55,752 nucleotides of DNA from Actinomycetes bacterium (GTDB lineage: Bacteria; Actinomycetota; Acidimicrobiia; Acidimicrobiales; Bog-793), in assembly GCA_021791795.1 (NCBI GenBank), contig JAJYVX010000003.1, forward strand, positions 1 through 55,752. Reading direction: 5' to 3'. Of the stretch, positions 14,914 through 34,271 are shown in pieces. Under the pieces are notes generated by a model that did no database searches, was not told where the DNA came from, and saw nothing but the letters and a program-made list of their open reading frames with translations. Position numbers and translations under genes: made by a program. How positions within the stretch are numbered: position 1 is the first letter of the stretch; every line of letters begins with the position of its first letter.

Positions 14914-14929
14914 TCCGATCGCCACGGCG

Positions 14930-15538: not shown

Positions 15539-15556
15539 GACCGTTAGCTCAGAAGA
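15531..15556. terminator. Shared hairpin spanning both stop codons of convergent soxG and the GS-like gene
   Basis: TCTTCTGAG (15531-15539) and CTCAGAAGA (15548-15556) are perfect reverse complements around the 8-nt loop ACCGTTAG. The soxG TGA (15536-15538) and the minus-strand TGA (15549-15551) lie inside the two arms. Confidence 0.4.
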
Positions 15557-16907: not shown

Positions 16908-17008
16908 GACATCCCCTTTCGATCGAGCTCCGTGACCGGTCACCCGGCGAGCTGCCTTTCCTTGCTTGTTCTCGGTGGACGACCACAAGCCGGCCAGAGG
17001 AGTGCCGC

Positions 17009-18397
17009 CTAGGCCTTCTCCCAGCCGGGGATCCAGTTGGTGCCGGCGAGCGGCACCCTTGCCATGGCCGCCGCCTCCAACGTGAGGCCGACGAGGTCGT
17101 CCGGCTCGAGGTTGTGCACGTCCGACTTCCCGCACGCTCGGGCGAGCGCCGTGAGCTCCATGGTGAGGCCCTTCAGGTAGTTCGTCATCCAGCGCGAACC
17201 GAGCTCCGGATCGAGGCGCGCCTCGAGGTCCGGGTCCTGTGTCGTCACACCGACGGGGCACATCCCCGTGTGGCAGTGATGGCAGTAGCCAGGCTCGGTG
17301 CCGAGCGCGAGGTAGTCGCCGACGGCATCCTGCTCGACACCGTCCTCCACATAGGTCGGCCGGTTGCAGCCGAGGGCCACGAGCGAGGCGACGCCGACAG
17401 AGACTGCGTCTGCGCCGAGCGCGAGCGCTTTGGCGACGTCCGCCCCCGAGCGTATTCCTCCGGACACTATGAGCTGCACCTTGTCCTTCATGCCGATGTC
17501 CCGCAAGGCGTCGGAGGCGATTCGCACGGCGGGCAGGGTCGGTATGCCCGCGTGCTCGATGAACACCGTCTGGGTCGCTCCCGTTCCTCCCTGCATGCCG
17601 TCGATCACGACGACGTCGGCGCCGGCCGCGACCGCGAGCTTGACGTCGTGCTCGACGCGGGTCGCGCCGAACTTTACGTAGATGGGCTTCTCCCAACTGG
17701 TCGCCTCGCGCAGCTCCCCGATCTTGATCCTCAGGTCGTCGGGACCGGTCCAGTCGGGATGCCGTGACGCCGAGCGCTGGTCGATGCCCGCCGGGAGCGT
17801 CCGCATCGCGGCCACGCGCTCGCTCACCTTCTGCCCGAGGAGCATGCCGCCACCGCCTGGCTTCGCACCCTGTCCGATGACCACCTCTATGGCGTCAGCC
17901 GCCTTCAGGTGATCGGGGTTGAAGCCGTAGCGCGACGGCAGGCATTGGTACACGAGCAGGCGCGACGCTCGGCGCTCCTCGTCGGTCATTCCGCCGTCAC
18001 CTGTCGTCGTGGACGTGCCGGTGTTCGTGGCAGCTCGGCCCAGGGCCTCCTTCGCGCTTGCTGAGAGCGCGCCGAAGCTCATTCCGGCGATGGTTATGGG
18101 GATGTCGAGCTCAAGCGGGCGCTTGGCGTAGCGCGTACCGAGCACGGTCTTCGTATCGCAGCGCTCCCTGTATCCCTCGAGCGGGTAGCGAGTCAGCGAG
18201 GCCGTCAGGAACACGAGGTCGTCGAAGCTCGGCAACACCCGCTTCGCACCCCAACCCCGGATCTCGTAGCGGCCGACGTCGGCCATCTCGTGTATCTGGC
18301 CGATCACCTCACGCGAGAACGTGTGGCTTGGCACGGCACCGGTCCACCGCACGCGGTTGGTGCCCGGGCCCCCGGGCGTATCTGCGTCGTTGCTCAT
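17009..18397 (-). CDS. mgsC: FMN-binding glutamate synthase-family protein (GlxD-like; N-methylglutamate synthase subunit C candidate)
   Basis: GltS FMN-domain motifs (GQGAKPGGGGML, LIVSGGIRSGADVAKALALGADAV). 462 aa. Confidence 0.85.
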   Translation of the reverse strand: MSNDADTPGGPGTNRVRWTGAVPSHTFSREVIGQIHEMADVGRYEIRGWGAKRVLPSFDDLVFLTASLTRYPLEGYRERCDTKTVLGTRYAKRPLELDIPITIAGMSFGALSASAKEALGRAATNTGTSTTTGDGGMTDEERRASRLLVYQCLPSRYGFNPDHLKAADAIEVVIGQGAKPGGGGMLLGQKVSERVAAMRTLPAGIDQRSASRHPDWTGPDDLRIKIGELREATSWEKPIYVKFGATRVEHDVKLAVAAGADVVVIDGMQGGTGATQTVFIEHAGIPTLPAVRIASDALRDIGMKDKVQLIVSGGIRSGADVAKALALGADAVSVGVASLVALGCNRPTYVEDGVEQDAVGDYLALGTEPGYCHHCHTGMCPVGVTTQDPDLEARLDPELGSRWMTNYLKGLTMELTALARACGKSDVHNLEPDDLVGLTLEAAAMARVPLAGTNWIPGWEKA

Positions 18398-18398
18398 G

Positions 18399-19091
18399 TC
18401 AGTACTTCTGGTCCTTCAGGGCATCGAAGTTGTAGAGCTGCTTGGCGGAGGCCACCCTCTTCACGTCCTCCGCCGACACGTGGTCGAAGCGAGCAGCCTG
18501 CAGGATGCGTCGCACCTCCTCCACGTCGTCTGAGGAGATTTCCTCGAGTCTCGCGTCGGAACCGAGCGAGGCGATCTTCCCGGCCACGTAGATCACGGCC
18601 TCGTAGAGGCTGTCGCCGAGAGCCGACCCGGCATCGCCGCCGATCAGGATCGTTCCGGCCTGTGCCATGAAACCGCTCATGTGGCCGACGTCGCCCGCGA
18701 CGGCGAGCGTGGAGCCCTTGAGCGAGATGCCGGCACGCGACGACGCGTCTCCCTCGACGACGACGATCCCGCCGTGAGCTGAGGCCGCGGCGCACTCCGA
18801 AGCGTTGCCACGGACCCGCCCCGACCCGCTCATCAGGTTCTCCCCCACTGACCAACCGACGAACCCGTCCACGACGACGTCCGGGCCGTCACAGAGACCC
18901 CCGATGAAGTAGCCGGCGTTGCCCTCGATCGAGATGGAGAGCTTGTTCGAGAGGCCCACCGAGAGGTTGTGGCGTCCGCGGGGCTCCGTTATGCGAACCT
19001 GCGCGCCGTCCGGCAAACCCCGCAGCGCAGCGTTGACCTCGCTCACAGAGAGCTCGCCGCAGCTCAGCTCGACCACGGTGGCCGTCACCAT
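18399..19091 (-). CDS. mgsB: GXGXG-motif glutamate synthase domain protein (GlxC-like; N-methylglutamate synthase subunit B candidate)
   Basis: Repeated GXGXG beta-helix motifs (GNAGYFIGG, GDVGHMSGF). 230 aa. Its stop lies 1 nt upstream of the next gene's start. Confidence 0.85.
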   Translation of the reverse strand: MVTATVVELSCGELSVSEVNAALRGLPDGAQVRITEPRGRHNLSVGLSNKLSISIEGNAGYFIGGLCDGPDVVVDGFVGWSVGENLMSGSGRVRGNASECAAASAHGGIVVVEGDASSRAGISLKGSTLAVAGDVGHMSGFMAQAGTILIGGDAGSALGDSLYEAVIYVAGKIASLGSDARLEEISSDDVEEVRRILQAARFDHVSAEDVKRVASAKQLYNFDALKDQKY

Positions 19092-19972
19092 GTGAAGATC
19101 TCCTCGGGCTGCGGCTCGAACACGCGTGCCTCCTCTATCCCGGGGAGATCGGTGAGAGCGACGTACTCAGAGGCCACCGCGACGTACTCAGGAGTCTCGG
19201 CCACGACGAGTGGCTTGCAGGCCGAGGCGTCGCGGACGACGGCGATCGAGTCCTCTGCGGCGACGAGGAGGGTGAAGAAGCCGTCGAACGTCCGCATGAC
19301 CCCGTAGAGAGCGTCTTTCAGGTCGCCACCGCCAGCCATCTCGCGCGCTATGTAGCGCGCGGCCACCTCGGAGTCGTTGTCCGTGTCGCACTCGACGCCC
19401 TCCGCGGCGAGGTCCCGCCGGATGCTCGCGTAGTTGGAGAAGCTTCCGTTGTGCACGAGCGAGATGTCGCAGCCGCCCGCGAACGGGTGCGAATGCTCGG
19501 TGGTCACAGCCGACTCGGTCGCCATCCGCGTGTGGCCTATCGCCGCGTATCCGGACCTGTTCGCGATTCCGTAGGCGCCGCAGACCTCGAGAGGCGACCC
19601 GACGTCCTTGTAGAGCTCGAGTGCCCGCCCGTAGCCGAAGAGCCGGACGCCTGGCGCGACGTTGCCGAGGGCGTGCTTCATCTCGTCGTTGCTCGCCGTG
19701 GTGACGCAGACCGCCTGGCGGCCCCTCCGCTCGAGGCGCACCTCTGTCCCGAGCTCCTCGGCGAGGGGCGGCTCCAGTGAGTCCCAGTCGAGCTCCGCCG
19801 GTGCGCTGAGCGAGTACTTGAGCTCTCCCGGCTCGAGGTCACGGTCGTAGATGGCGATACCGGCCGAGTCCGGTCCTCTCGAGGTGAGGTGGTCGAGCAT
19901 CGGCACCATGAGCTTGCCCAGCAGCGGTTGCAGGTCCTCGTTCTTCAGCAGAAGGCCAGCGATTCCGCACAT
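19085..19972 (-). CDS. mgsA: Class II (Ntn) glutamine amidotransferase (GlxB-like; N-methylglutamate synthase subunit A candidate)
   Basis: N-terminal MCGIAG with catalytic Cys2. AGGAGG RBS upstream. Overlaps the downstream gene by 7 nt. Confidence 0.85.
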   Translation of the reverse strand: MCGIAGLLLKNEDLQPLLGKLMVPMLDHLTSRGPDSAGIAIYDRDLEPGELKYSLSAPAELDWDSLEPPLAEELGTEVRLERRGRQAVCVTTASNDEMKHALGNVAPGVRLFGYGRALELYKDVGSPLEVCGAYGIANRSGYAAIGHTRMATESAVTTEHSHPFAGGCDISLVHNGSFSNYASIRRDLAAEGVECDTDNDSEVAARYIAREMAGGGDLKDALYGVMRTFDGFFTLLVAAEDSIAVVRDASACKPLVVAETPEYVAVASEYVALTDLPGIEEARVFEPQPEEIFTW

Positions 19973-20242
19973 GTCTTGCTCCCACCTCCTATCACTGAAT
20001 CGTCGCGCCCTCGGCGAATCGATGTCACCGTATCACTCTCGGAAACTCTGTGTACTGGGAGTGAACAGCGGCGAGTCGACGTGCCCATCCCGCAGCCGGC
20101 CCCGGGACTGCGTGATTCCGCCGCCACCTCGGAGTTTGCCGGCTCAGCGGACTTCTTGCGCTCTGCCTCTTGACTACTGAAATCAGATATAGCAGATTTG
20201 ATCTCTGAAATCTTCGCTCAAGTGCCAGAGGGGGGGACCACG

Positions 20243-21583
20243 GTGACTGACAGCACGACGGTGGAGCGACCGCTCGGCTGGCACCTCGAGGGGCCGCTCG
20301 ACTACGGCGCCCTCGTGACAGACGACTTCCGGGTGCACCGGTCGGTCTTCACCGACCCGAAGATCTTCGAGGACGAGATGGTGCGCATCTTCGGGGGGAC
20401 GTGGGTCTACCTGTTGCACGAGAGCGAGATCCCAGAGCCCTTCGACTTCCAGACCCGCCGCGTGGGCCGCCGTCCTGTCATCGTGACGAGAGCCGAGGAC
20501 GGCGAGATCCACGTCCTGTTGAACCGCTGCACGCATCGCGGGACGCTCTTGTGCCCGCTCGAGACGGGCAACCAGAAGCGCTTCCAGTGCGCCTACCACG
20601 GCTGGACCTTCTCCAATTCGGGTGACCTGACGGCGATCACCTATCCGGACGGCTACCGGGAGGACTTCGCCAAGGAGGCCTACAACCTCGGCAGGGCGCC
20701 GAGAGTGCAGTCCTACCGCGGGTTCGTCTTCTGCAGCTTCAACCCGGACGTGGAGAGCGTCGAGGCCTGGATGGGACCGGCCCGGACGATCTTCGACTGG
20801 GCGGTCGACCGGGCTGGTGGCGACGACCACGTCAAGATGGTGAAGGCCTCGACGATGGAGTACCGGGGCAACTGGAAGCTGCAGAACGACAACAACGGCG
20901 ACATGTACCACGTGCCGTTCACCCACCGCTCGACGCTCACGATGACCCGACAGCGCCACGGTGCCGGCAAGTCGCTCGACCACTTCAAGGGCGACAGCAG
21001 CCCCATGACGGTACGGGACCTCGGGAACGGCCACAAGATGATCGACCAGCGCCCCTCGATCGACTCCGTCTGGGAGAGGGCACGCCCCATTCCAGGTCGC
21101 GAGACACAGGCCGAGCAGTTGATCGCCCGCATCGGCGAGCAGCGTGCCCGCCAGTACCTCGAGTACGTAGGGAGAGCAGGGATCAACTTGATCCTCTACC
21201 CGAACCTCTACGTGGGCGGCAACGCGAGCCTCCTCGTGTACGAGCCCGTGGCGGTGAACCGCACGTTCGTCCACAGCTACATCGCGCTGTTGCCTGGAGC
21301 TCCACCTGAGATAAACGCGCTTCGGATGCGATTCGAGGAGGACTTCATCAACATCGGCAACCGCGACGACAACGAGGTGTTCGAGCGGCTTGCGGCCGCT
21401 CTGGGCGACATACCGGAGATGCCGTGGATCGACGTGAGCCGAGGTTGGCGAACGGCCGGCGAGACGGTCGAGGCGGATGAGTCTCTCAGTGGACGCGTCA
21501 CCTACGAGACCGGGATCAGGGCCAGCTACGTCCGGTGGCGCGAGCTGATGACAAAAGCACCCGCGATGGCTGTCGGCGTCTAG
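20243..21583 (+). CDS. Rieske [2Fe-2S] ring-hydroxylating oxygenase alpha subunit
   Basis: Rieske motif CTHRGTLLC...CAYHGWTF and mononuclear-iron motif NNGDMYHVPFTH. GAGGGGGGG RBS precedes the in-frame GTG at 20243. The ORF-track TTG at 20198 lies in an AT-rich promoter-like tract. Confidence 0.9.
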   Translation: MTDSTTVERPLGWHLEGPLDYGALVTDDFRVHRSVFTDPKIFEDEMVRIFGGTWVYLLHESEIPEPFDFQTRRVGRRPVIVTRAEDGEIHVLLNRCTHRGTLLCPLETGNQKRFQCAYHGWTFSNSGDLTAITYPDGYREDFAKEAYNLGRAPRVQSYRGFVFCSFNPDVESVEAWMGPARTIFDWAVDRAGGDDHVKMVKASTMEYRGNWKLQNDNNGDMYHVPFTHRSTLTMTRQRHGAGKSLDHFKGDSSPMTVRDLGNGHKMIDQRPSIDSVWERARPIPGRETQAEQLIARIGEQRARQYLEYVGRAGINLILYPNLYVGGNASLLVYEPVAVNRTFVHSYIALLPGAPPEINALRMRFEEDFINIGNRDDNEVFERLAAALGDIPEMPWIDVSRGWRTAGETVEADESLSGRVTYETGIRASYVRWRELMTKAPAMAVGV

Positions 21584-21599
21584 GAAAGGACAGCGAGTC

Positions 21600-22184
21600 G
21601 TGCAAGTCGAGCCAGAGATGCTTCTCGCCGAGGAAGACGTCCGTTACGTGAACGACGAGCTATACGAGGACGTCTTTCGCTTCTACCGGGAGAGCTCGGA
21701 GTGGACCGGACCGGGATCCCACGAACCGGAGCCTGAGGCGGTCGTCGTACGGGAGGCTCGTCTTCTCGACCAGCGCAACTACGAGAGCTGGCTCGACCTC
21801 TTCCTGCCCCGGTGCGTCTACTGGGTGCCGGGTCGCGAGGTCGTCGGCGACCCACGGGAAGAGCCGGCGCTTCACTTCGACGACCACCGCCGGCTGGTCG
21901 ACCGGGTGGCGCTCATAAGGACGGGGTTTCTCCACGCCCAGACCCCCCCGTCCGTCACCTGTCGCATGGTTGGCTCGCTCGAATCTGGGCGCCACGCTGC
22001 GGGCACCTGCGACGTCTTCTCGAGCGTGCTGATCGACGCCTACCGGGGGGGGGCCCACGTCCAGTACGCCGGCCGCCAGTTCCACCGGATCGCGGAGACA
22101 CAAGACGGCTGGGCGATCCAGTACCGGGTCCTGCTCCTCAACGACCGCGCCGGGAGCCAGGGCAACATCACCTTCATCCTTTGA
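21600..22184 (+). CDS. Ring-hydroxylating oxygenase beta subunit (NTF2/SnoaL-like)
   Basis: EARLLDQRNYESWLDLFLPRCVYWVP and HFDDHRRLVDRVALIRTG are typical of RHO beta subunits. GTG start with AGGAAAGGA RBS. Confidence 0.85.
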   Translation: MQVEPEMLLAEEDVRYVNDELYEDVFRFYRESSEWTGPGSHEPEPEAVVVREARLLDQRNYESWLDLFLPRCVYWVPGREVVGDPREEPALHFDDHRRLVDRVALIRTGFLHAQTPPSVTCRMVGSLESGRHAAGTCDVFSSVLIDAYRGGAHVQYAGRQFHRIAETQDGWAIQYRVLLLNDRAGSQGNITFIL

Positions 22185-22236
22185 CCGGAGACAGCCTCGA
22201 TGGGACACGAGACATGCTGACAAGGAAGCGAACTCG

Positions 22237-22896
22237 GTGAAGCTCTCCCGCGTAGTGAGCCTTCGGGCGAACGGTGAAGCGGTGTGGCAGTCGATAAGCG
22301 ACGTCAAGGCGCTGGCCGAGTGCATCCCGGGTGTCGAGCTGTTCGGCCAAGACCAGAGCGGCGACTACCGGGGCGCCATCACGTTCAAGACCGGCCCGAA
22401 GTCCGTGCGCTTCGAGGGCAGCGTGAAGTTCAAGCTGGACGAGGTGGCTCGCTCAGGGGAGCTCGAGGCCGTCGGCTCCGATAGGCGCCAGGCGTCGAGA
22501 GCCAAGGCCCAGCTTGCCTTCGCCGTGGTGGAACGGGATGGCGCGAGCGAGCTCACCCTCGACGGCGACGTGACGTTCGTCGGCGCGCTGGCCGAGTTCG
22601 CCGAGTCCGGCGGCGTCTACGTCGGTGAGCAGCTGATGGACGCCTTCGCTGCCGAGCTGGAGCAGCGGATGGCCGGAACAGAGGCGTCGTCTCGAGCCGG
22701 TGCCGCTCTGCCGTCCGAGGGTTCTGATCCGGGGGTCGTTGGTGCGCCGGCAGTCGTCGGCCCGCAAGCAGCCGCTCCGATTCGGATCAAGTTGTTCGCT
22801 CTCATCCGCACAGCCATCCGTGGGCTCTGGCAACGGCGCCGAGTCACTTCGACCGCATTGAGCAGAGGAGACAAGACCGCTGATGAAGGTATCTGA
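22237..22896 (+). CDS. CoxG/SRPBCC-family protein with extended C-terminal tail
   Basis: N-terminus VWQSISDVKALAECIPGVE...GAITFKTGPKSVRFEGSVKF matches the CoxG fold. The C-terminus has an Ala/Pro-rich linker and an amphipathic helix IRIKLFALIRTAIRGLW. Confidence 0.75.
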   Translation: MKLSRVVSLRANGEAVWQSISDVKALAECIPGVELFGQDQSGDYRGAITFKTGPKSVRFEGSVKFKLDEVARSGELEAVGSDRRQASRAKAQLAFAVVERDGASELTLDGDVTFVGALAEFAESGGVYVGEQLMDAFAAELEQRMAGTEASSRAGAALPSEGSDPGVVGAPAVVGPQAAAPIRIKLFALIRTAIRGLWQRRRVTSTALSRGDKTADEGI

Positions 22897-24556
22897 GGCC
22901 GTCGCCGAGACCGTCTACGCAGAGGGCGTCCGCAAGGTTTTCGTGGTGCTCGGCCACGGCAACATGGAGGCCTGCATCAAGCTCGGGCAGCTCGGCGCCG
23001 AGCTGCGCTCCGCCCGCCACGAGGCCGCCGCCGTCGCCATGGCCGAAGGCTACGCGCTCGCGACAGGGACCGTCGGCTTCGCTTCGGTGACGCGCGGTCC
23101 CGGGCTCACCCAGCTCGGTACAGCCCTCATGATGGCGTCACGCAACTCCGTGCCGATCGTGGTGTTGACCGGTGACATCTCAGCCGAGTCACCCAGCCAC
23201 GTCCAAGCGATGGACCAACGGCGTTTCGTCGAAGCCTGCGAGAGCATCTACAGAAGGGTCCGCACGGCGGGAACCGTGCACGACGACGTACGGGAGGCGT
23301 TCTACCGAGCCGCTGTCGAACGCCGTCCGGTCATCTTGAGCGTGGACGCGTCCCTCAAGGACCAGCAGTACGACTGGGGCGGTGACTACCGACCCTCCGC
23401 CAGCTACCTGCCCGTCAACAGCGGGATCCTTCCCGACGACGAGGCCATCGCGACACTACTGCAACGTCTCGAGCAGGCAGAGCGGCCGCTCATCCTCGTC
23501 GGCAGGGGCGCTCTCGCCGCGGAGGAAGAGATCGACCAGCTGGCGTCCATGCTCGGTGCCGCCGTCCTCACATCGCTGCCGGCGAAGGGCTTCATGTCGG
23601 GCAATCCATTCACCCTCGGGGTGGCCGGCGTCTTCGTGACAGAGGCCGGCGAAGCAGCCTCGGGCGACGCCGATGTCGTGCTCGCACTAGGCGCGAGCCT
23701 GAACCGCTACACGCTCGAAGGCGGTCTCCAGTTCCCCAACGCCGAGATAGTGACTGTCAACAACCGCCCTTTCACGAACTACGGCGACACGTTCGCCGAC
23801 ACCTACATCTGGGGCGACGCCAAGTCGACCTTGCGCGAGGTCAACGAACGGCTGAGACAGCGCGGCCACTCCAACACCGGCTTCCGGACGCCCGAGTTCG
23901 CCTCGTACCTGGACGCCGAGCGTCGCAGGGCTGCGGAGGACTGCTCTGCCAGCATGGGGAGCGACGGGCTCCTCGACCCGAGAGCAGTCGTCGCCTCCCT
24001 CGACAGCCGCCTGCCGGCAGACGCCTGGGTGGTGATCGGCCAGGGCCACTACTGGGCCTTCCCCATCGCGAACATGCGCGGCCCGGGAGGAGCACGCTTC
24101 GTGGTCGCCGGAGAATCCGGGGCGGTGGGCAACGCACTCGGAACCGCCATCGGCTTCGCAGAGGGCGCAGGCGACGCCCCCGTCGTGCTCGTAGAGGGCG
24201 ACGGCAGCCTCATGATGCACCTGCAGGAGCTCGACACCGTACGGCGGTATGGCACCCGCTTGCTGATCCTGCTGATGAACGACGAGGCCTTCGGTTCGGA
24301 GCTCCACTCTCTGCGGGCGCACGGCGTCGATGCGTCCGAGTCGGTGATCCCATCTCCCGACTTCGGCGATGTGGCGGGCGCCCTCGGATGGGTCGGCGTG
24401 CGAGCCGACTCTCTCGAGCAGTGCGAGAAGGCGATCGAGGCCTTCTTCTCCGACACGAGGCCCTATGTGATCGACGCCCGGATCTCCCGTGAGGTCGTCT
24501 CGCCACCTGCTCGGCGACTCGAGTACGGCGAGAACGTCTTCTGTCCGTTGCTCTAG
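22883..24556 (+). CDS. Thiamine-diphosphate-dependent enzyme (acetolactate synthase / benzoylformate decarboxylase superfamily)
   Basis: Three-domain TPP architecture: N-terminal HEAAAVAMAEGYA...TRGPG and a C-terminal GDGS...MNDEAFG TPP-Mg motif. 557 aa. Confidence 0.85.
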   Translation: MKVSEAVAETVYAEGVRKVFVVLGHGNMEACIKLGQLGAELRSARHEAAAVAMAEGYALATGTVGFASVTRGPGLTQLGTALMMASRNSVPIVVLTGDISAESPSHVQAMDQRRFVEACESIYRRVRTAGTVHDDVREAFYRAAVERRPVILSVDASLKDQQYDWGGDYRPSASYLPVNSGILPDDEAIATLLQRLEQAERPLILVGRGALAAEEEIDQLASMLGAAVLTSLPAKGFMSGNPFTLGVAGVFVTEAGEAASGDADVVLALGASLNRYTLEGGLQFPNAEIVTVNNRPFTNYGDTFADTYIWGDAKSTLREVNERLRQRGHSNTGFRTPEFASYLDAERRRAAEDCSASMGSDGLLDPRAVVASLDSRLPADAWVVIGQGHYWAFPIANMRGPGGARFVVAGESGAVGNALGTAIGFAEGAGDAPVVLVEGDGSLMMHLQELDTVRRYGTRLLILLMNDEAFGSELHSLRAHGVDASESVIPSPDFGDVAGALGWVGVRADSLEQCEKAIEAFFSDTRPYVIDARISREVVSPPARRLEYGENVFCPLL

Positions 24557-24586
24557 CGGATCCTGGCACTGGAGGGAAGGAACGAG

Positions 24587-25756
24587 TTGGGAGTGGACAT
24601 GTCGCCGAACACACGTCCGAACGTTGCAAGTCTCGAGGTGTACGAGGGTGGTAGGTCACCGGAACTGGTACGTGCGGAGCTCGGTCTCTCGGGGCCGCTC
24701 GTGGAGCTTGGCGCGAACGAGAGGCCCTTCCCGCCGGACGACTTCGTCCTCGCGGCCGTCTACGAGGCCGCGAGGCAGGGCCACCGCTATCCGGACTACA
24801 CAGCGAAGGAGCTACGGCGCGCCCTCGTCGGCCACCTTGCGGAAGAGGAGGCACGATGGAATCGTCGCTGCGAGGTAGCCGAGGAGCAGATCGTCGTGGG
24901 CTGCGGGTCGAGCAGCCTCATCCAGCAGCTCTTCCTCTGCTACGTGAGCGAGGGCGACGAGATCGTCGTGCCGTGGCCGAGCTACCGGCCGTTGCTGCAC
25001 AACGCGCAACTCTGTGGTGCAGAGGTCGTCCGCGTCGGGCTCGTGGACGAAACGGCGGACCTTCCGGCGATGCTTCGTGCGATCACGCCTCGCACCAAGG
25101 TGATCTGCCTCACGAACCCCAACAATCCCACCAGCACAGCCGTCGAACGTGCCAGCGTGACGGCCTTCCTCGAACAGGTGCCCTCGGACATCGTCGTCCT
25201 CGTCGACGAGGCCTACGTCGAGTACTCCGCTGGCGAGCTCTACGGCTCGGCCGTTCACGACCTCGTCCACTTCGGGAATCTCGTGGTCGCACGCACGTTC
25301 TCGAAGACGTTCGGGCTCGCAGGCTTCCGAGTCGGCTTCGCCGTCTCGAACCCGGCCATCGTGAATGACCTTCGGCGAGTGGGCTTCGCCTTCCCTGTGG
25401 GGAACTGTGCCCAGGCCGCTGCGCTTGCCACCGTGCGCAGTCCTCAAGTCCTCGAGGCGCACTTGCAGCGTGTCCTCGAGGAACGCGAGCGAGTCACGAG
25501 GGAGCTGCGCCAACTCGGTTGGCGCGTTGCTGATTCGCGGACAAATTTTATCTGGCTGCCCCTGGGTGCACCTGGCGCCAGCAGCGATCTCGCCAGACGG
25601 CTCGAAGCTGTCGGGGTCGTGACAAGGGCTTTTGCCGAAGGCCTCCGCGTGACCATAGGCACGCGGGAAGAGAACGACGTCCTTCTCGCACGGTTGTCCG
25701 AGCTCGGACCTTCCCTGTCCTCGGCGAGTCGAGTCGAGAGCACCTTGCGGTCATGA
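24587..25756 (+). CDS. Class I/II pyridoxal-phosphate aminotransferase (HisC-like)
   Basis: YPDYTAKELRRAL, NPNNPT and ARTFSKTFGLAGFRVG (PLP lysine) motifs. GGAGGGAAGG RBS. Start is TTG 24587, GTG 24593 or ATG 24599. Confidence 0.85.
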   Translation: MGVDMSPNTRPNVASLEVYEGGRSPELVRAELGLSGPLVELGANERPFPPDDFVLAAVYEAARQGHRYPDYTAKELRRALVGHLAEEEARWNRRCEVAEEQIVVGCGSSSLIQQLFLCYVSEGDEIVVPWPSYRPLLHNAQLCGAEVVRVGLVDETADLPAMLRAITPRTKVICLTNPNNPTSTAVERASVTAFLEQVPSDIVVLVDEAYVEYSAGELYGSAVHDLVHFGNLVVARTFSKTFGLAGFRVGFAVSNPAIVNDLRRVGFAFPVGNCAQAAALATVRSPQVLEAHLQRVLEERERVTRELRQLGWRVADSRTNFIWLPLGAPGASSDLARRLEAVGVVTRAFAEGLRVTIGTREENDVLLARLSELGPSLSSASRVESTLRS

Positions 25757-26376
25757 GCGCACCCCTGCTCCGGCCGGACTTCCACTTCATGTCTGCCCCG
25801 TCACTGGAGTCGATCACGCCGGACGAGTGGCGCCTGATCCAAGGGCAGCGCGTGACGTTCCACCGCGAGCTCGCTGCAGAGCAGTTGCTCGCCATGCTGA
25901 AGGCCGGAGCAGAGCTCCCCACCTACGGCTACCGCCTGAACAACTTCCAGCACTGCTTGCAGACCGCGACCATGATGGCGAGGGCGGGCTACGACGAGGA
26001 GGACGTGGTCGTCGGCCTCCTCCACGACGTCGCCTTCGTCGTCGCTCCCGATCAGCACGGTGCGGCGGCAGCCCAGCTCCTGAAGCAGGTGACTTCTGAG
26101 CGCAACCACTGGATGCTCGAAAACCACGCGCTCGTCGGCGAGCGCTTCCTACCTGGGGACAGGGGCGCCTGGCGAGAGCTGCGTCACCACGAGCACTTCG
26201 CCTGGACGGAGGAATTCGTCGAGCGCTTCGACCTGCGTGCCATCGATCCGCTCGAACCGATCGCGCCGCTAGAGGAATTCGAACCCACCGTCGACAAAGT
26301 CTTCGCATCCCGGCTCGGTGAAGGGCTTGCCCAGCCGAGCGGACTGCTCGATCCTGACAAGGAGGCGACTGGATGA
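25753..26376 (+). CDS. HD-domain protein resembling PhnZ/TmpB-type diiron oxygenases
   Basis: NNFQHCLQTATMMARAGYDEEDVVVGLLHDVAF plus downstream His residues (DQHG, NHWMLENH). 207 aa. ATGA overlap with the aminotransferase gene. Confidence 0.6.
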   Translation: MSAPLLRPDFHFMSAPSLESITPDEWRLIQGQRVTFHRELAAEQLLAMLKAGAELPTYGYRLNNFQHCLQTATMMARAGYDEEDVVVGLLHDVAFVVAPDQHGAAAAQLLKQVTSERNHWMLENHALVGERFLPGDRGAWRELRHHEHFAWTEEFVERFDLRAIDPLEPIAPLEEFEPTVDKVFASRLGEGLAQPSGLLDPDKEATG

Positions 26377-27332
26377 GCCTCTCCATAGCTCGTGACACCG
26401 CCGAGACAGAGCTGCGACAGGAGCAGGCGGTCTCCCGCACAAAGCTCGCACACAAACGCCACTGGGGCGAGATCGTCGCCAGCGTCCTCGTCGTGGTCGT
26501 CGCTGCGTTCATCATCCACGCGATCGTGGTCAACAAGAACATGCAGTGGCATGTCGTCTGGTCATACTTCGGCTCGCACGTGATCATCACCGCTCTTCTC
26601 GTGACTCTCGAGCTCAGCCTCGTGAGCCAGGCGATTGCGATCGTGCTCGGCATCCTCCTTGCCGCCATGGGCCAGGCGCGCAATCCGGTGATGCGGACTG
26701 CTCAACAGGGCTACATCTGGCTATTCAGAGGTACGCCTCTTCTCGTACAACTGCTGTTCTGGTACAACCTGGCGCTCCTCTTCCCGAACATCAGTCTCGG
26801 CATACCTTTCACCCACCTGTATCTCTTCCAGGAGAGCACCAACAGCGTCATCACCGGCTTCGTTGCGAGCATCCTCGGCCTCGCCCTGAACGAGGGCGCC
26901 TATATGGCGGAGATAGTCCGCAGCGGCATCCTTGCGGTGCCGAAGGGGCAACTGGACGCCGGCTCGAGCCTAGGCATGAGACGCCGACGGGTGTTCCGCA
27001 AGATCGTCCTGCCCCAAGCCGTCCGGGTCATGATCCCGCCCACGGGTAACCAGTTCATCGGTCTGCTCAAAGCCAGCTCGCTCGTGTCCGTGATCGGCGG
27101 TGGAGACCTCCTCACGCGGGTGGAGTACATCTACGGGCAGAACTTCCTCGTCATCCCTCTCCTACTCGTTGCAAGCATCTGGTACCTCGTCCTGACCTCG
27201 CTCGCAACGATCGGTCAGCACTTCCTCGAGCGTGCCCTCGACGTCGAGAAACGAGGTCCCCGATCGGAGCGGCTCGGCCCCCGGTGGTTGAGGAACCTCC
27301 GCCCAGGAAAGGAGGGTGTCTCGTATGGCTGA
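26373..27332 (+). CDS. Polar amino-acid ABC transporter permease
   Basis: Multiple TM segments and the EAA-type loop [35 protein letters not shown] overlap with the upstream gene. Confidence 0.9.
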
Positions 27333-28140
27333 TCCGACTGTTCAGGCGACGGGGGTTCACAAGTGGTTCGGCCAGACGCACGTGCTCCGCGGCATCGACT
27401 TGACCGTTGCTCCGGGCCAGATCGTCGGAATCATCGGCCCCTCGGGCTCGGGGAAGAGCACGTTCCTGCGCTGCATCAACCATCTCGAGACGATCGACGC
27501 AGGCGACATCCTCTTTCAGGGCAAGTCCGTGGCGCGCCGCTTGCTGAAGGACCGTCCCTTCGAGATCGACGAGAAGAGCGTGTGCGACCTTCGCTCTCGC
27601 ATGGGAATGGTGTTCCAGCAGTTCCACCTGTTTCCTCACCTGACGGCTCTGCAGAACGTGATGCTCGGTCCAGTGAACGTCCTCAAGCAGAAGAAAGGGG
27701 AGGCCGAGCAGATCGCGACCGACCTCCTGAAGCGGGTCGGCCTCGCGGATCGCGGCCATCATTTCCCCGCCCAGCTCTCGGGTGGTCAGCAGCAACGGGT
27801 GGCGATCGCCCGAGCGCTCGCGATGAACCCGGCTCTCATGCTCTTCGACGAGCCGACGAGCGCTCTCGACCCGGAGTTGGTGGGTGAGGTGCTAGCAGTC
27901 ATCCGGCAGCTCGCCGAGACGGGGATGACCATGATCATCGTCACGCACGAGATGCAGTTCGTGCAGGAGATAGCCGATCAAGTCCTCTTCATGGACAACG
28001 GCGTGGTCGTAGAGCGCGGAACGTGCAGGCAGGTCTTCAAGGATCCACGAGAGGCTCGCACGCGGGACTTCCTCGCGAGGGTGGCTCACTATCCGAAGCA
28101 GGAAAGAGAGGGGGAAGCCGGCAGGACGCTCAAGGTCTAG
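27325..28140 (+). CDS. Polar amino-acid ABC transporter ATP-binding protein
   Basis: Walker [10 protein letters not shown], signature [15 protein letters not shown], Walker [16 protein letters not shown] at 27325 with AAAGGAGGG RBS. Confidence 0.92.
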
Positions 28141-28213
28141 CGGAGGTAACTGTGCAGTACATCGCATTTGTGAGGTTTCGGATCACTCATTATCGAATTG
28201 GGAGGGGAGTGAC

Positions 28214-29164
28214 GTGAAGAAAGGAAAGCCGCGTGCTTTCAGGATGCCGAAAGCGCTACTGGTGGGAGCAGCAGCACTTGCCATGGGGGTCGGGCTCGCG
28301 GCGTGCAGCAATGGCCCCAGCTCTTCAGGCACCGGATCGACTGGCAACACCACGAGCAGCTCAGGGAGCCATCCGGCCCTGTGGAAGCTCCTACCGGCGA
28401 ACATACGAGCCGCCGGCCAGATAACGATCGCGACCGACCCGGAGTTTCCGCCGTACGAGTACTACCTGAACGGCAAGTTGACCGGCTTCGAGCCTGCGCT
28501 GCTCAAGGCGATCGTCGGGCAGTTCGGAATAAAGCTGAACATCGTCTCGGCAGGCTTCGACGAGCTCATCCCTGGAGTTGACTCCGGCCGCTACGTGGCG
28601 GCCATGTCAGGCATAAGTGACCTACCCTCTCGTGAGAAGCAGGTCACCTTCGTCGACTATGGGGACTACGCGACTGCCTTCGTCACCGACGCAGCGAACC
28701 CGGGCCACGTCAGCTCGAACGCGCTCAGCGTCTGCGGTCTCTCCGTGAGCGGACAGAAGGGGACGATAACGGTGCCGGACGCGACGCAGCTGAGCCAGAA
28801 CTGCGTCAAGCACGGCAAGCCCGCCGTCAAGTTCGTGCAGTTCTCCTCCTCGGCCGACTCAACGCTCGCGGCCGAGTCGGGACGGGTCAATGCCCAGCTC
28901 CAGGACTACATCGAGGCTGTCTACGAGGCCCAGGAGACCCATGGGAAGATGAAGGTGTATGCCGTTCCCTTCCTCCCGAAGGGACCGATGGGGATCATCA
29001 CGAAGATCGGCGCTACCCAACTGGACAACGCCTTTCTCCAGGCCGTGAAGGCGATCCAGACGGACGGCGCGTACATGAAGATCATCAACCAGTGGAAGAT
29101 CCCGTCCGCTGCCCTCATGACGCCGGGAATCAACCTGAACAAGTCGGGCAAGTACGGCAACTGA
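28214..29164 (+). CDS. ABC transporter substrate-binding lipoprotein (family 3, amino acid/opine type)
   Basis: Signal peptide with lipobox GLAACS and a Ser/Gly/Thr linker, then the SBP_bac_3-like core (ITIATDPEFPPYEY). GGGAGGGGA RBS. Confidence 0.85.
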   Translation: MKKGKPRAFRMPKALLVGAAALAMGVGLAACSNGPSSSGTGSTGNTTSSSGSHPALWKLLPANIRAAGQITIATDPEFPPYEYYLNGKLTGFEPALLKAIVGQFGIKLNIVSAGFDELIPGVDSGRYVAAMSGISDLPSREKQVTFVDYGDYATAFVTDAANPGHVSSNALSVCGLSVSGQKGTITVPDATQLSQNCVKHGKPAVKFVQFSSSADSTLAAESGRVNAQLQDYIEAVYEAQETHGKMKVYAVPFLPKGPMGIITKIGATQLDNAFLQAVKAIQTDGAYMKIINQWKIPSAALMTPGINLNKSGKYGN

Positions 29165-29173
29165 CGACACCCG

Positions 29174-29216
29174 GCGGCGAACGGCGGGGGGCTGCAGGCT
29201 CTCAGCCGTTCGCCGC
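29174..29216 (+). terminator. GC-rich hairpin, candidate intrinsic terminator after the ABC transporter genes
   Basis: Perfect 12-bp stem GCGGCGAACGGC (29174-29185) / GCCGTTCGCCGC (29205-29216) with a 19-nt loop. It starts 10 nt after the stop at 29164 and is followed by TTGCC, so there is no strong U-tract. Confidence 0.4.
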
Positions 29217-29275
29217 TTGCCGGACGACAAGCCGACGGCCGCGTCGCCGGCGGTCGTCGGACATGACGCAAGGAG

Positions 29276-30325
29276 GTGAGGCAGACGACCGCGGCTGACG
29301 GGCTGAGCGAGACGGGCGATGAGCCCGCCGCACAAGAGGTGTCCGATACCGATCTGGTCGAAGAGAACTGGCAGATCCAGTTCTCGAATGACACATACGC
29401 GTACGGGTGCATCCCTGTGCCGGTCGTCGCGGTTGGGCCCACGGGCGGGCTTCATGCCCTCGTCGTCGGGGGCAACCACGGGGACGAGTTCGAGGGGCAG
29501 ATCATCGCCCGTCGGCTTCTCTTCGAGCTCCGCAGCCGTCGTCTGCGGGGCAGGGTGACGCTGCTGCCTTCCCTCAATTTCCCAGCGGTCCTGGCGCAGA
29601 GCCGCACGTCCCCGGTAGACGGACAGAACCTCAACCGTTCGTTCCCGGGCGCTGCCGGCGCAGGGCCCACCTCAGCCATTGCATGGACTGTCAGCGAGAA
29701 GCTCCTCCCCCAGTGTGACTTCGCCATTGATCTCCATTCGGGCGGACTGGCTTCGCGCTGGCTGCCGAGCGGCTTCGTCCGGCTGACGTCAGCGGACTCG
29801 GTTCAGCAGCGGGAGGACAAGCTGACCGCGGCACGCCTGCTCGGCCTGTCGGACGTGCTCGTCGTGGGGGAAGGCAGCGACGACCGCTCGTTGTCGGCGC
29901 AGTGCGACCGCGCCGGCGTCCTCTCCGTCGCGGCAGAGCTGGGTGGGGGCGCCACCGTCGAGAGCGCCCTCGTCGAGCAGGTGCTCTGGGGCGTGCTTCG
30001 CCTCCTCGGGCACTGGGGCCTCCTCGAGGATGACGGGACGGCTCACGAGGACGTGCAGGCTCCACCCCGCCTGCTCGCACTGCGTGGCGGCGACCAGGTG
30101 GTGATGTCGCACTGGCACGGGATGCTCGAACCGATCTGCGAGGTTGGCGAGGAGGTAGACGCGGGTCAAGCCCTCGGGCGCCTCTACTCGCTCGAGCGGC
30201 CCGCCGCCGAGCCGACGGTGGTCCGAAGCACGTCACCCGGTGTAGTGGCCATCCGCCGGCTGCCGCCCGTCGTCGCCCCCGGGGACTACCTCTTCACAGT
30301 CGCTCCGGCCTGGAGGCCAGAGTGA
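29276..30325 (+). CDS. Succinylglutamate desuccinylase/aspartoacylase-family zinc deacylase (DoeB-like)
   Basis: ALVVGGNHGDEFEGQIIARRL zinc-binding motif, DLHSGG. About 340 aa. The start is uncertain because the AGGAGG at 29271-29276 abuts the GTG. Confidence 0.75.
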   Translation: MRQTTAADGLSETGDEPAAQEVSDTDLVEENWQIQFSNDTYAYGCIPVPVVAVGPTGGLHALVVGGNHGDEFEGQIIARRLLFELRSRRLRGRVTLLPSLNFPAVLAQSRTSPVDGQNLNRSFPGAAGAGPTSAIAWTVSEKLLPQCDFAIDLHSGGLASRWLPSGFVRLTSADSVQQREDKLTAARLLGLSDVLVVGEGSDDRSLSAQCDRAGVLSVAAELGGGATVESALVEQVLWGVLRLLGHWGLLEDDGTAHEDVQAPPRLLALRGGDQVVMSHWHGMLEPICEVGEEVDAGQALGRLYSLERPAAEPTVVRSTSPGVVAIRRLPPVVAPGDYLFTVAPAWRPE

Positions 30326-30347
30326 GAGTCGCGAGGGGTCCGGTGAG

Positions 30348-31535
30348 ATGCAGATGACACCGAGAGTTCTCATAGTCGGTGGTGGCATCATGGGTGCGTC
30401 GACTGCGTTCTTCCTGGCGGAGGCCGGACTCGGCGACTCCACTGTCGTGCTCGAGCGGGGAACGGTCGGCAACGGCTTCAGCTCGATGTCGACCGGGATA
30501 GTCCGTTGCCACTACGGCCATCCCGCCCTCGTCTCCATGGCACTGCGCAGCAGGCGCTTCTTCGAACAGTCATGCGATCTCCTCGGGGCGGACATCGGCT
30601 TCAGGCCCATCGGCTACGCCTTCGGCGCGGGAGCCGTCGACGAGGACGCTCTGCGGCGGAACGTGGAGTTGCAGCAGTCGCTCGGCGCCGAGGTGGACAT
30701 CGTCCCAGTCGAGGAGATCGCCGCATTCTGGCCGGGAATCGAGTCCTCGGGCATCAGTCTCTTCGCCTTCGAGGCGGGTGGCGGATACGGCGACGGGTAC
30801 CTCACAACCCAGGGCATGGCCGCCGCGGCGCGCTCGAGAGGTGTCGACATCCGCCAGCGCCAAGCCGTCCGGCGGCTCGTCGTCAGCTCCGACGGCGGGG
30901 AGGTGCAGGGCGTGCAGCTCGCATCGGGAGAGACGCTGTGGGCAGACATCGTCGTGGTGGCAGCCGGGCCGTGGTCGGTCTCGCTGTGCGACGAGATCGG
31001 TGTCGAGGTGCCGATCTCGTGCCATCGGGAGCCCAAGCTCGTGCTGCACTGGCCGGCGGCGGTCGATTCGAGGCCGGTACTGGCGGACAGGCTCCGCGCC
31101 CAGTACTTCAGGCCCGACTCACGGGACACGGTCATCTACGGCAGCACGCAGACCGACCATGTCGACCTCGTCGACCCCGATCGTTTCGACAGCTTCGCGG
31201 ACGACGACTTCGTCGACAACGCGATCACGGCCATCGATCAGCTAGTGCACAGAGACGACATCGAAATAGTGCGCAGCTACGCCGGCTGCTACGACATCAC
31301 CCCGGACCTCTACCCGATCATCGGCCGCTGCGATGTCGAGAGGCTCATCCTCTGCATGGGGTTCAGCGGACACGGCTTCAAGCTCTCGCCGGCCGTGGGG
31401 CGCCTGGTCGCCGACCTGATCGTGAACGGCGAGAGCTCCGATCCTCACGTTCCGACGGACTTCTTCGCGCTGCGGCGATTCGGCGAGGGCCGCTCCATCC
31501 GCAGCCTGAACCCCTACTCGGGGTCGAGGTACTAG
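30348..31535 (+). CDS. FAD-dependent oxidoreductase (DAO family, monomeric sarcosine oxidase-like)
   Basis: VLIVGGGIMGASTAFFLA dinucleotide fold and a GFSGHGFKLSP C-terminal motif. 395 aa. Confidence 0.85.
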   Translation: MQMTPRVLIVGGGIMGASTAFFLAEAGLGDSTVVLERGTVGNGFSSMSTGIVRCHYGHPALVSMALRSRRFFEQSCDLLGADIGFRPIGYAFGAGAVDEDALRRNVELQQSLGAEVDIVPVEEIAAFWPGIESSGISLFAFEAGGGYGDGYLTTQGMAAAARSRGVDIRQRQAVRRLVVSSDGGEVQGVQLASGETLWADIVVVAAGPWSVSLCDEIGVEVPISCHREPKLVLHWPAAVDSRPVLADRLRAQYFRPDSRDTVIYGSTQTDHVDLVDPDRFDSFADDDFVDNAITAIDQLVHRDDIEIVRSYAGCYDITPDLYPIIGRCDVERLILCMGFSGHGFKLSPAVGRLVADLIVNGESSDPHVPTDFFALRRFGEGRSIRSLNPYSGSRY

Positions 31536-31614
31536 CCGTGGCCAGGCCCGCAACCACCCCCGACCTTCGCAATCGCTCGATCGAGACCAGGGAGGGCGCC
31601 GCGAAGCGTTCCGG

Positions 31615-32817: not shown

Positions 32818-32824
32818 AGGTCGC

Positions 32825-34033: not shown

Positions 34034-34271
34034 CCGTGGCCAATGCCAGGGACACGGCCAATGCGTGATAGCTGCGCCGGAGCTCTTCGAGCTGGACGAC
34101 GACGGCTTGTCACGGGCGCTGCGGAACGAGGTGACCGGCGAAGACATCGGGGCGGCAAGGTCTGCAGAGCTCGTCTGCCCCGTCTCTGCCATCCGGTTCA
34201 CCCCTGAACCGCCCCGGACGAGCGGAGTGCCGAACGAAGGACCTCTCACAGGACGAGGAGGAGAGCGATGA
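34014..34271 (+). CDS. Small [3Fe-4S]-type ferredoxin
   Basis: CQGHGQC...CP (CxxHxxC...CP) cluster motif. 85 aa. AGGGGAGGAG RBS. Overlaps the upstream gene by 20 nt. Confidence 0.8.
   Translation: MARLEVDRGQCQGHGQCVIAAPELFELDDDGLSRALRNEVTGEDIGAARSAELVCPVSAIRFTPEPPRTSGVPNEGPLTGRGGER

Follow-up and report, generated by a model that had tools for sequence, protein, structure and literature searches.

The window analysed here is a stretch of 55,752 nucleotides of contig JAJYVX010000003.1 (assembly GCA_021791795.1), which belongs to a metagenome-assembled genome of the Acidimicrobiales (3.45 Mb, 351 contigs, 92% complete). The window, with a G+C content of about 0.68, carries a string of plus-strand genes headed by a Rieske oxygenase and, next to it, the genes of the N-methylglutamate pathway (Table 1). 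The first nine genes of the string, between 20243 and 29164, encode the two oxygenase subunits, a CoxG-like protein, a thiamine-diphosphate (TPP) enzyme, an aminotransferase, an HD-domain protein and the three components of an ATP-binding cassette (ABC) importer. All nine, as reported in the initial annotation, were recovered by open reading frame listing and by Pfam and NCBIfam profile searches, and they are as tightly packed as stated there, with successive gaps of 16, 52, -14, 30, -4, -4, -17 and 73 nt. Eight more plus-strand genes follow after 29164 (gaps of 111, 22, 79, 7, -20, -4, 0 and -4 nt) and lead to the amidase stop codon at 36669. Overlapping stop and start codons join most genes of the string.

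Table 1. Genes and other features of the Rieske oxygenase string and the adjoining methylamine genes in the window (bit scores are given with the family cut-off where there is one).
Feature	Position	Strand	Basis or remarks
HTH_3 + Cupin_2 (PuuR-like) regulator	9688-10419	+	Pfam
mgdABCD-like four-subunit sarcosine-oxidase-like N-methylglutamate dehydrogenase	10477-15538	+	soxB family 519/529 bits; SoxD, SoxA-type and SoxG Pfam
gmaS, gamma-glutamylmethylamide synthetase	15549-16910 (start approximate)	-	TIGR03105, 614 bits vs 470
mgsC, mgsB, mgsA, split glutamate-synthase-like N-methylglutamate synthase	17009-19972	-	Pfam Glu_synthase, GXGXG, GATase_6/7
Divergent intergenic region, mgsA / Rieske oxygenase alpha; AT-rich patch containing TTGACT	19973-20242	.	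Sequence
Rieske oxygenase alpha, 446 aa	20243-21583	+	PF00355 + PF00848
Rieske oxygenase beta	21600-22184	+	PF00866 (Ring_hydroxyl_B), 78.7 bits
CoxG-like SRPBCC protein	22237-22896	+	PF06240, 42.8 bits vs cut-off 22.2; PDB 8uds CoxG family, 53 bits
ALS/POX-family TPP enzyme, 557 aa	22883-24556	+	Three TPP Pfam domains
HisC/Pat-like class I/II aminotransferase	24587-25756	+	PF00155
HD-domain oxygenase-type protein, PhnZ/TmpB/MIOX fold	25753-26376	+	Ligands, AF2 model, Foldseek
HEQRo-type polar amino-acid ABC permease	26373-27332	+	Pfam, NCBIfam
GlnQ-type ATPase	27316-28140	+	Pfam, NCBIfam
SBP_bac_3 lipoprotein binding protein, Lys/Arg/His type, lipobox LAAC	28214-29164	+	Pfam, NCBIfam
GC hairpin, no T tract	29173-29216	+	Folding vs shuffles
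AstE/AspA-family deacylase, DoeB-like	29276-30325	+	PF24827; TIGR02994, 172 bits vs 403; recurs with the Rieske oxygenase clade
DAO-family FAD amine / N-methyl-amino-acid oxidase-like protein	30348-31535	+	PF01266; SolA 107, soxB 109 bits
MFS transporter	31615-32817	+	PF07690
AllG/DUF1116 protein	32825-34033	+	PF06545; syntenic in L017, L101, L182, L183
[3Fe-4S]-type ferredoxin, Fer4_15/Fer4_13, C11-x5-C17...C55-P	34014-34271	+	Pfam, motif
202-aa protein, no family	34268-34876	+	Homologs in L014, L017, L019, L101, L116, L182, L183
Cupin_2 protein	34877-35377	+	Pfam
Amidase-signature amidase	35374-36669	+	PF01425; syntenic in L014, L017, L182, L183

The extent of the gene string is best judged from its relatives. 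Alpha subunits at least 52% identical define the Rieske oxygenase clade, and genes were called and clustered in 49 loci that carry a member of it. In L183, a 12.7-kb contig from another organism, the genes run Rieske oxygenase alpha and beta, CoxG, TPP enzyme, aminotransferase, HD protein, DAO oxidase, AllG, ferredoxin, 202-aa protein, amidase; ten gene families thus stand in the same order as in the window at 55-75% identity, and the ABC genes are absent. Two L183 open reading frames without a Pfam match, of 422 aa (5642-6910) and 184 aa (8179-8733), occupy the places of the ABC and AstE genes and of the MFS gene, respectively. Most of the gene set is also present in L182 and in genome G016 (loci L011 and L019). 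In L019 the Rieske alpha, beta, CoxG, TPP enzyme and aminotransferase genes are in order; the HD gene is encoded on the opposite strand, at another place in the locus. In L182 the beta, TPP enzyme, aminotransferase and HD genes are in order, there is no CoxG gene, and the alpha gene lies 11 kb from beta at the contig end. A Transposase_mut gene (L182, 135-1376) lies just upstream of the L182 beta gene, and together with the displaced alpha gene it is evidence that this cluster is mobile or rearranged. The comparison of genome context that the initial annotation had called for thus finds the string conserved from Rieske oxygenase to amidase in one locus and for the most part in two others. Because L183 keeps this order, the conserved unit is about 20243-36669, or 16.4 kb, of which the nine genes make up the proximal half.

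The initial annotation had ended the island at the hairpin behind the binding-protein gene. The strong hairpin is real, since a 121-nt stretch there folds at -69.6 kcal/mol (z = -4.1 against shuffles), but 29164 is not the end of the co-directional string. A partial terminator or an mRNA-stabilising element inside a longer string is a possible role for it. Upstream, the intergenic region between mgsA and the Rieske alpha gene is likely a shared control region of the mgs and Rieske oxygenase genes. A scan for consensus promoters and terminators called nothing useful in this control region or at the hairpin. The nine-gene segment has a G+C content of 0.647, compared with 0.687 upstream and 0.675 in the rest of the string downstream, which is consistent with later acquisition of this half. 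A megablast plasmid search with 20198-25756 gave no match.

The strongest functional clue for the island is its link to methylamine. The full eight-gene N-methylglutamate set (gmaS, mgsABC, mgdABCD) lies next to it, with the Rieske alpha gene divergent from mgsABC-gmaS and mgdABCD beyond. GmaS is the only enzyme here that scores above its equivalog cut-off. Among the 31 loci longer than 6 kb, gmaS and/or mgs genes occur less than 10 kb from the Rieske oxygenase in seven: the window, L016 (Acidimicrobiales), L023 and L025 (Betaproteobacteria), and L017, L101 and L116, which have no taxon label; of these, L017 and L101 are counted with the Acidimicrobiales and L116 with the Betaproteobacteria. 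The seven represent two phyla and show several arrangements of the genes. The two also occur together in genomes. The Rieske oxygenase was detected in 3 of 61 related genomes and GmaS in 5, and all three are within the five (hypergeometric p = 2.8e-4, uncorrected for relatedness); in G016 the two genes are on different contigs. The clade is rare, and no member of it turned up in a sample of 400 other genomes from across the class. Because the clade recurs beside gmaS/mgs and co-occurs with GmaS, the pathway most likely yields methylamine. In its gene content and its GmaS score the set resembles the known N-methylglutamate pathway, from which it differs in its physical and phyletic coupling to hydrolases and a Rieske alpha/beta oxygenase. 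Such a coupling suggests intracellular production of methylamine from a larger compound, and not its uptake.

The PuuR-like gene before mgdABCD is a candidate regulator of the region. The same type of regulator (29.7% identical) adjoins the Rieske oxygenase genes in L013, and in L101 a regulator with the same Pfam domains, a match at domain level only, is found less than 5 kb upstream of them. An aniline-dioxygenase-type system, in which a ligase like glutamine synthetase supplies a Rieske oxygenase with a gamma-glutamyl amide, was considered and rejected, as the ligase here is a bona fide GmaS accompanied by full mgsABC and mgdABCD. In the betaproteobacterial loci L115 and L116, also L025 and L108, PxpA (LamB_YcsF), PxpC (CT_A_B) and a Gfo/Idh/MocA oxidoreductase adjoin the Rieske oxygenase and gmaS; these proteins may remove 5-oxoproline that arises from gamma-glutamyl compounds.

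In the alpha subunit the Rieske motif (C96-x-H98-x17-C116-x2-H119) is complete and an iron site (D220/H223/H228 with D375/D376) is present; both align with IadD, its closest solved relative (168 bits). All NCBIfam matches are under cut-off, the best being BenA (258/781), followed by AntA (206/672), HcaE (159/830) and GbcA (101/670). As the initial annotation had noted, neither a reductase nor a Rieske- or plant-type ferredoxin adjoins the oxygenase, and the sole ferredoxin in the window is the Fer4_15/Fer4_13 protein near the end of the string. It had counted the missing reductase as an anomaly, a view that does not survive comparison with related loci, where a Fer4_15 ferredoxin, with or without a glutathione-reductase (GR)-type reductase, occurs near the beta gene. 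For example, in L013 (Paraburkholderia) such a ferredoxin directly follows beta and is itself followed by a GR-type reductase. In L015 the ferredoxin is two genes past beta, behind a P450 gene, and in L017 the reductase comes after the three ABC genes that follow beta. The window ferredoxin is 47% identical to the L015 copy and 61% to the L183 copy, and is proposed, by homology and position, as the electron donor of the oxygenase. The sole homolog of the linked reductases in the genome of the window is a Pyr_redox_2 + Reductase_C protein, encoded unlinked on contig C121 and 40% identical to the L017 reductase. A second Fer4_15 ferredoxin is encoded on contig C180, some 6 kb from the one PhyH-family 2-oxoglutarate (2OG) oxygenase of the genome.

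This arrangement has a described counterpart. Type V Rieske oxygenases combine an alpha-n beta-n oxygenase with a [3Fe-4S] ferredoxin as well as a reductase of GR type (Kweon et al. 2008, PMC2358900), and actinobacteria often have unlinked, shared electron-transfer genes, a condition termed 'genetic discreteness' (PMC2358900). The window oxygenase appears to fit the Type V layout, so that the lack of an adjacent reductase would be explained by known biology. With PhdABCD of Nocardioides KP7 and the actinobacterial phthalate dioxygenases (PMC2358900) it shares alpha and beta subunits with a Rieske centre and a 2-His-1-carboxylate iron site, a three-Cys CX5C...C ferredoxin in the string, and a GR-type reductase encoded elsewhere. 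It differs in that its best profiles, BenA and AntA, are of two-component type and reached at about one-third of cut-off; its context is one of amino-acid and methylamine genes, with none for aromatic ring cleavage.

A second useful comparison is IadDE of Variovorax paradoxus, which oxidises indole-3-acetate, a heteroaryl-acetate, and can do without a reductase of its own (PMC12633357). The IadCDE system (PDB 9O71, 7YLS/8H2T; PMC12633357) is an alpha3beta3 enzyme and the best solved relative of the window alpha; its own traits are the heteroaryl-acetate substrate, monooxygenase behaviour, a dispensable reductase and a linked ABC binding protein. The similarity is distant, the window has neither iadF-J-type genes nor a MarR regulator, and the electron supply in the window is of ferredoxin rather than IadC type. 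No diol dehydrogenase or ring-cleavage dioxygenase was found in any of the 49 loci, which makes monooxygenation, or else C-N or C-C cleavage, the probable reaction of the oxygenase.

In the CoxG-like protein a low-complexity linker of Ala, Gly and Pro joins the CoxG domain to a C-terminal helix, which is amphipathic or hydrophobic. The initial annotation had remarked that it is not with the CoxMSL genes, and these are indeed on the other strand, at a distance of over 20 kb. Its attachment of CoxG to the oxygenase genes is not borne out, since the gene overlaps that of the TPP enzyme by 14 nt and L184 has an aminotransferase-CoxG-TPP enzyme triad without a Rieske oxygenase. In that locus (6403-12553) the triad is followed by an HbpS-like protein, an SDR protein and a NicX-family protein, and it is preceded on the opposite strand by aconitase-like subunits and a phosphoenolpyruvate-mutase/isocitrate-lyase-family gene. 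The triad is thus reused in another pathway in L184. The trio also occurs in L183 and in G016 (L019). The G016 copy of the TPP enzyme gene (L011, 12736-14408) is in three pieces in different frames (12736-13200, 13202-14179 and 14172-14408), and is either a pseudogene or the product of long-read assembly frameshifts.

CoxG is the membrane-bound, menaquinone-binding partner of Mo-CO dehydrogenase (PMC12202499), and in Sulfolobus a CoxG-like protein anchors a flavoenzyme other than CO dehydrogenase, the quinone-reducing glycerol-3-phosphate dehydrogenase, to the membrane (PMC11962113). The window protein shares with these (PMC12202499; PMC11962113) the SRPBCC domain, the linker and the C-terminal helix, and its gene is likewise directly beside, and overlapping, a gene of an oxidoreductase family. 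It differs in its partner, which here is an ALS/PoxB-family TPP enzyme. That enzyme belongs to a rare clade and is under every NCBIfam equivalog cut-off: AruI, third-best, reaches 177/500, Xsc 151/676 and PoxB 145/792. The ALS/POX family includes PoxB, the quinone-dependent pyruvate dehydrogenase. By analogy, the CoxG-like protein is proposed as a membrane or quinone adaptor that may serve the TPP enzyme; to our knowledge no pairing of CoxG with a TPP enzyme has been described. There is no aldehyde dehydrogenase in the window, as would follow if the TPP enzyme decarboxylates oxidatively, straight to the acid.

The aminotransferase is just under two cut-offs (PRK03321, 339/374; hisC, 265/277), and its closest PDB match is 4r2n, a putative phenylalanine aminotransferase (222 bits). 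In the arginine transaminase pathway the aminotransferase AruH and the TPP decarboxylase AruI act in succession, and AruI takes as substrate the 2-oxo acid derived from a basic amino acid. The window resembles AruH/AruI and Ehrlich-type breakdown in having an aminotransferase with an ALS-like TPP enzyme; it differs in a score far under cut-off, in the HisC/Pat-like character of the aminotransferase and in having neither aldehyde dehydrogenase nor guanidinobutyrase. In betaproteobacterial sister loci the aminotransferase and a split TPP decarboxylase are not homologous to those of the window, and an aldehyde dehydrogenase is encoded with them, so that the same chemical step recurs with unrelated genes.

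The HD-domain protein, called PhnZ-like in the initial annotation, is indeed of PhnZ/TmpB/MIOX type by fold and by its six ligands. The ligand set H..HD..H..H..D (H67, H91, D92, H102, H125, D160) is invariant in five homologs. With the AlphaFold model (pLDDT 79.5) as Foldseek query against the PDB, ranks 1-12 are all PhnZ, TmpB or MIOX (TM up to 0.71), and HD hydrolases appear only at E > 0.6. Against the PhnZ equivalog TIGR03276 the protein scores 22 bits vs 214.6, and no phn genes are nearby. It is thus predicted, from the model and the ligands, to be of oxygenase type but not a PhnZ ortholog. A 32% identical HD paralog is encoded on contig C130 (6421-6810).

The known HD oxygenases take over from a hydroxylase and have an alpha-hydroxy acid as substrate, and SmaX cleaves a C-C bond in a carboxylate (PMC12186529). 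In L015, L100 and L103 the HD gene directly follows one for a 2OG oxygenase. No 2OG oxygenase occurs in the window, L182 or L183; the genome of the window has no PF03171 member, and its single TauD and single PhyH members are on other contigs. Compared with PhnY*/PhnZ, TmpA/TmpB and SmaO/SmaX (PMC12186529; PMC8177086), the HD ligand set and fold are alike and 2OG-HD pairs exist in sister loci; the window, L182 and L183 differ in lacking the 2OG partner, and no phosphonate genes are present. Because the Rieske oxygenase is the sole hydroxylase of the string, a cascade of Rieske and HD enzymes is a reasonable but unproven inference.

The importer comprises the full polar amino-acid set of HisJ/LAO/GlnH type, with SBP_bac_3 binding protein, HEQRo permease and GlnQ-type ATPase. 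The D, aromatic, S..R and D positions of the solved AncCDT-1 and AncQR are kept in the binding protein, which aligns with both over its length. AncCDT-1 binds Arg and AncQR Gln or Arg; the kept Ser, Arg and Asp are taken to hold the alpha-amino-acid group, and other kept residues to flank a basic side chain, as in the LAO/HisJ family.

Several downstream genes are shared with other members of the clade. The DAO oxidase has an ortholog in L183 that is 74% identical. The amidase is under cut-off for every NCBIfam family, the best match being indoleacetamide hydrolase (203 vs 532), and is a candidate for a methylamine-releasing hydrolase. The 202-aa protein has no Pfam or NCBIfam match. An acetoacetate decarboxylase fold was considered for it and rejected, as the best Foldseek E of 0.04 is not significant, the model has a pLDDT of 67 and there is no invariant lysine.

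Across the 49 loci, frequent partners of the Rieske oxygenase are ABC importers of PotD, polar amino-acid and Dpp types, and hydrolases that include the amidase, a MetX-like alpha/beta hydrolase, the AstE-like deacylase, PxpA/PxpC and an ADP-ribosyl-glycohydrolase. Further partners are a second Rieske protein, the 202-aa protein, AllG and the DAO oxidase, and the HD protein, which occurs together with a 2OG oxygenase and a DszB/SsuA-like protein. The DAO oxidase of L100 is a SolA (N-methyl-L-tryptophan oxidase) equivalog, above cut-off. A stretch of L100 (3961-7814), like L103, L018, L015 and L020, carries the gene of a cytoplasmic 'NMT1' protein with the desulfinase DszB as closest solved relative (55 bits). 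Beside it are a 2OG oxygenase (best PDB match named ethylene-forming enzyme, 187 bits), the HD protein and the SolA-type oxidase; L018 also has SsuD-like monooxygenases. These sister loci hint at a sulfur-containing N-methyl amino acid.

While the gene families and their associations are observed, every reaction of the following route is inferred from sequence. The string is tentatively read, with confidence a little short of even, as a system that imports and degrades an N-methylated alpha-amino acid whose side chain is basic or heteroaromatic, and that passes methylamine to the N-methylglutamate pathway. In the first step the lipoprotein binding protein and the ABC permease/ATPase would import the amino acid, which the HisC/Pat-type aminotransferase would convert to a 2-oxo acid. 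The ALS/PoxB-family TPP enzyme would then remove C1, perhaps straight to the acid, and the CoxG-like protein might hold it at the membrane or supply menaquinone. The Rieske oxygenase, as an alpha3beta3 enzyme, would hydroxylate the resulting acid or the carbon beside the N-methyl nitrogen, with electrons from the ferredoxin of the string and the genome's single GR-type reductase on C121. In the fifth step the HD oxygenase could perform a four-electron cleavage of an alpha-hydroxy acid intermediate, as typical of PhnZ, TmpB and SmaX, with the Rieske oxygenase standing in for the usual 2OG hydroxylase. Finally, the AstE-like deacylase, DAO oxidase, AllG, 202-aa protein, cupin and amidase would dismantle the nitrogen-rich remainder and release methylamine. 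The initial annotation had proposed import, oxygenation, transamination and TPP-dependent cleavage. That general logic fits the gene content; its unit was drawn too small, and the methylamine link was absent from it.

A side chain both basic (from the binding protein) and aromatic (from the aminotransferase and oxygenase) suggests a histidine derivative. Since a histidine-like side chain is thus combined with methylamine as product, the best single guess at the substrate is a compound of N-methylhistidine type; methylated arginine or lysine fit nearly as well. A more specific version is quite doubtful. It would make the string the first catabolic route for N-methylated histidine types (N-methylhistidine of anserine and actin, desulfurised ovothiol) with CoxG-TPP and Rieske-HD pairings. 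The CoxG-like adaptor and PoxB-like TPP enzyme would turn the 2-oxo acid directly into a heteroaryl-acetate, Rieske alpha/beta and the HD diiron oxygenase would carry out oxidative C-C or ring cleavage, and the methylamine set free would be assimilated via GmaS/Mgs/Mgd.

The set is without clear orthology to a known pathway and matches none that has been described. Literature searches on Rieske oxygenases in connection with methylamine or N-methylglutamate, and with methylarginine, methylhistidine or methyllysine, brought up no Rieske-based route from an amino acid to methylamine. Homarine and trigonelline, which yield N-methylglutamate or methylamine, were considered and set aside, because the published hom and tgn pathways use flavin enzymes rather than Rieske oxygenases and their gene sets differ. 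The string is thus a member of no named pathway, and resembles a Type V Rieske oxygenase, an AruH/AruI-type pair, a PhnY/PhnZ-like cleavage and the N-methylglutamate pathway combined.

A number of observations weigh against the breakdown of an N-methylated amino acid. The best matches of the enzymes are far under family cut-offs. Support for the methylamine link comes from neighbourhood and from three genomes that lack phylogenetic independence, and L015, L018, L100 and L103 have the Rieske oxygenase clade with no methylamine genes within 10 kb. L182 has the TPP enzyme and aminotransferase but no CoxG gene, and the only two further TPP enzyme homologs found in a phylum-wide search (37-38% identity) adjoin neither CoxG nor an aminotransferase, which limits the triad to a small clade. 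The hairpin may divide the string into two transcripts, and the lower G+C of the nine genes means that the two halves may differ in history. Lastly, the sister loci hold clues to sulfonates or sulfinates (DszB/SsuA-like protein, SsuD-like monooxygenases), guanidino compounds (the 2OG oxygenase resembling ethylene-forming enzyme, ADP-ribosyl-glycohydrolase) and phosphonates (PhnZ-like HD protein, phosphonopyruvate-decarboxylase-like TPP enzyme), all of which this route leaves unexplained.

Among the other explanations, the one that survives best, though it is itself unlikely, treats the region as a mosaic, a recombination hot spot of unrelated nitrogen-compound genes in which the nine genes, the eight downstream and the methylamine genes each serve different substrates. 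Partners are shuffled among loci, a transposase lies beside the L182 cluster, the nine-gene segment is lower in G+C and is followed by a strong hairpin, and the clade is very patchy (3/61 relatives, 0/400 others in the class). Chance assembly is harder to reconcile with L183, where ten families keep their order even though the importer has been lost, with the stop/start overlaps that connect most genes, and with the recurrence of the same partner families beside the Rieske oxygenase in different phyla.

Also unlikely, and placed slightly behind the mosaic, is an oxygenase acting on a small free methylated amine or guanidine (dimethylamine to methylamine, methylguanidine, creatine). It alone would be connected with the methylamine genes, and the TPP enzyme, aminotransferase, HD protein and importer would form a separate adjacent pathway. 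Minimal loci would suit such a substrate, as they consist of a PotD-type binding protein, Rieske alpha/beta, two permeases and an ATPase beside gmaS-mgs, and partner genes differ greatly among loci. Nevertheless, the order from Rieske oxygenase through CoxG, TPP enzyme and aminotransferase to HD protein is kept in the window and L183, largely in G016/L019 and partly in L182. Both an alpha3beta3 BenA/IadD-like oxygenase and an ABC importer are unexpected for a volatile amine, and binding proteins that differ among loci suggest related but larger ligands.

An aminophosphonate or amino-sulfonate substrate (N-methyl-2-aminoethylphosphonate, phosphonoalanine, cysteate or N-methyltaurine) is improbable. 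Here the HD protein would cleave a C-P bond and the TPP enzyme would act on phosphono- or sulfopyruvate or sulfoacetaldehyde. The PhnZ/TmpB fold and ligands speak for it, as do features of the sister loci: 2OG-HD pairs followed by the SolA-type N-methyl amino-acid oxidase above cut-off, a split TPP enzyme like phosphono- or sulfopyruvate decarboxylase, and the DszB/SsuA-like and SsuD-like proteins. Against this, no phn, pal or xsc ortholog reaches cut-off (PhnZ 22 vs 215, Xsc 151 vs 676), the importer is of polar amino-acid type rather than PhnD/PhnS or TauA, and the genome of the window lacks the DszB-like and PF03171 2OG genes; ordinary alpha-hydroxy acids, moreover, are also open to C-C cleavage by HD oxygenases, as SmaX shows (PMC12186529). 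Equally improbable is the conversion of ordinary Trp or Phe to an arylacetate by the aminotransferase and TPP decarboxylase for IadDE-like Rieske oxidation, with the methylamine genes as unrelated neighbours, for which the IadD, phenylalanine-aminotransferase and (well under cut-off) indoleacetamide-hydrolase matches can be cited, but the match to IadD is distant, the window has none of the iad downstream genes, no locus has a diol dehydrogenase or ring-cleavage dioxygenase, the binding protein resembles basic amino-acid binders, and the recurrence of gmaS/mgs beside the clade and the phyletic co-occurrence go unexplained.

Should the breakdown of an N-methylated amino acid to methylamine prove wrong, the region would still be a well-delimited, conserved and uncharacterised catabolic cluster. 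If it is right, the string would supply the N-methylglutamate pathway of freshwater and soil Acidimicrobiales and Betaproteobacteria with methylamine from within the cell, and would tie the turnover of methylated amino acids to C1 and nitrogen cycling. It would give a context to three families whose function is hardly or not at all assigned, namely to the 202-aa orphan, to AllG/DUF1116 outside oxamate metabolism and to this clade of Rieske oxygenases. Two new enzyme partnerships would be added, Rieske oxygenase with HD-domain oxygenase and CoxG with a TPP enzyme, and these would extend recent principles, namely that an HD oxygenase acts after a hydroxylase and that CoxG is a general quinone or membrane adaptor.

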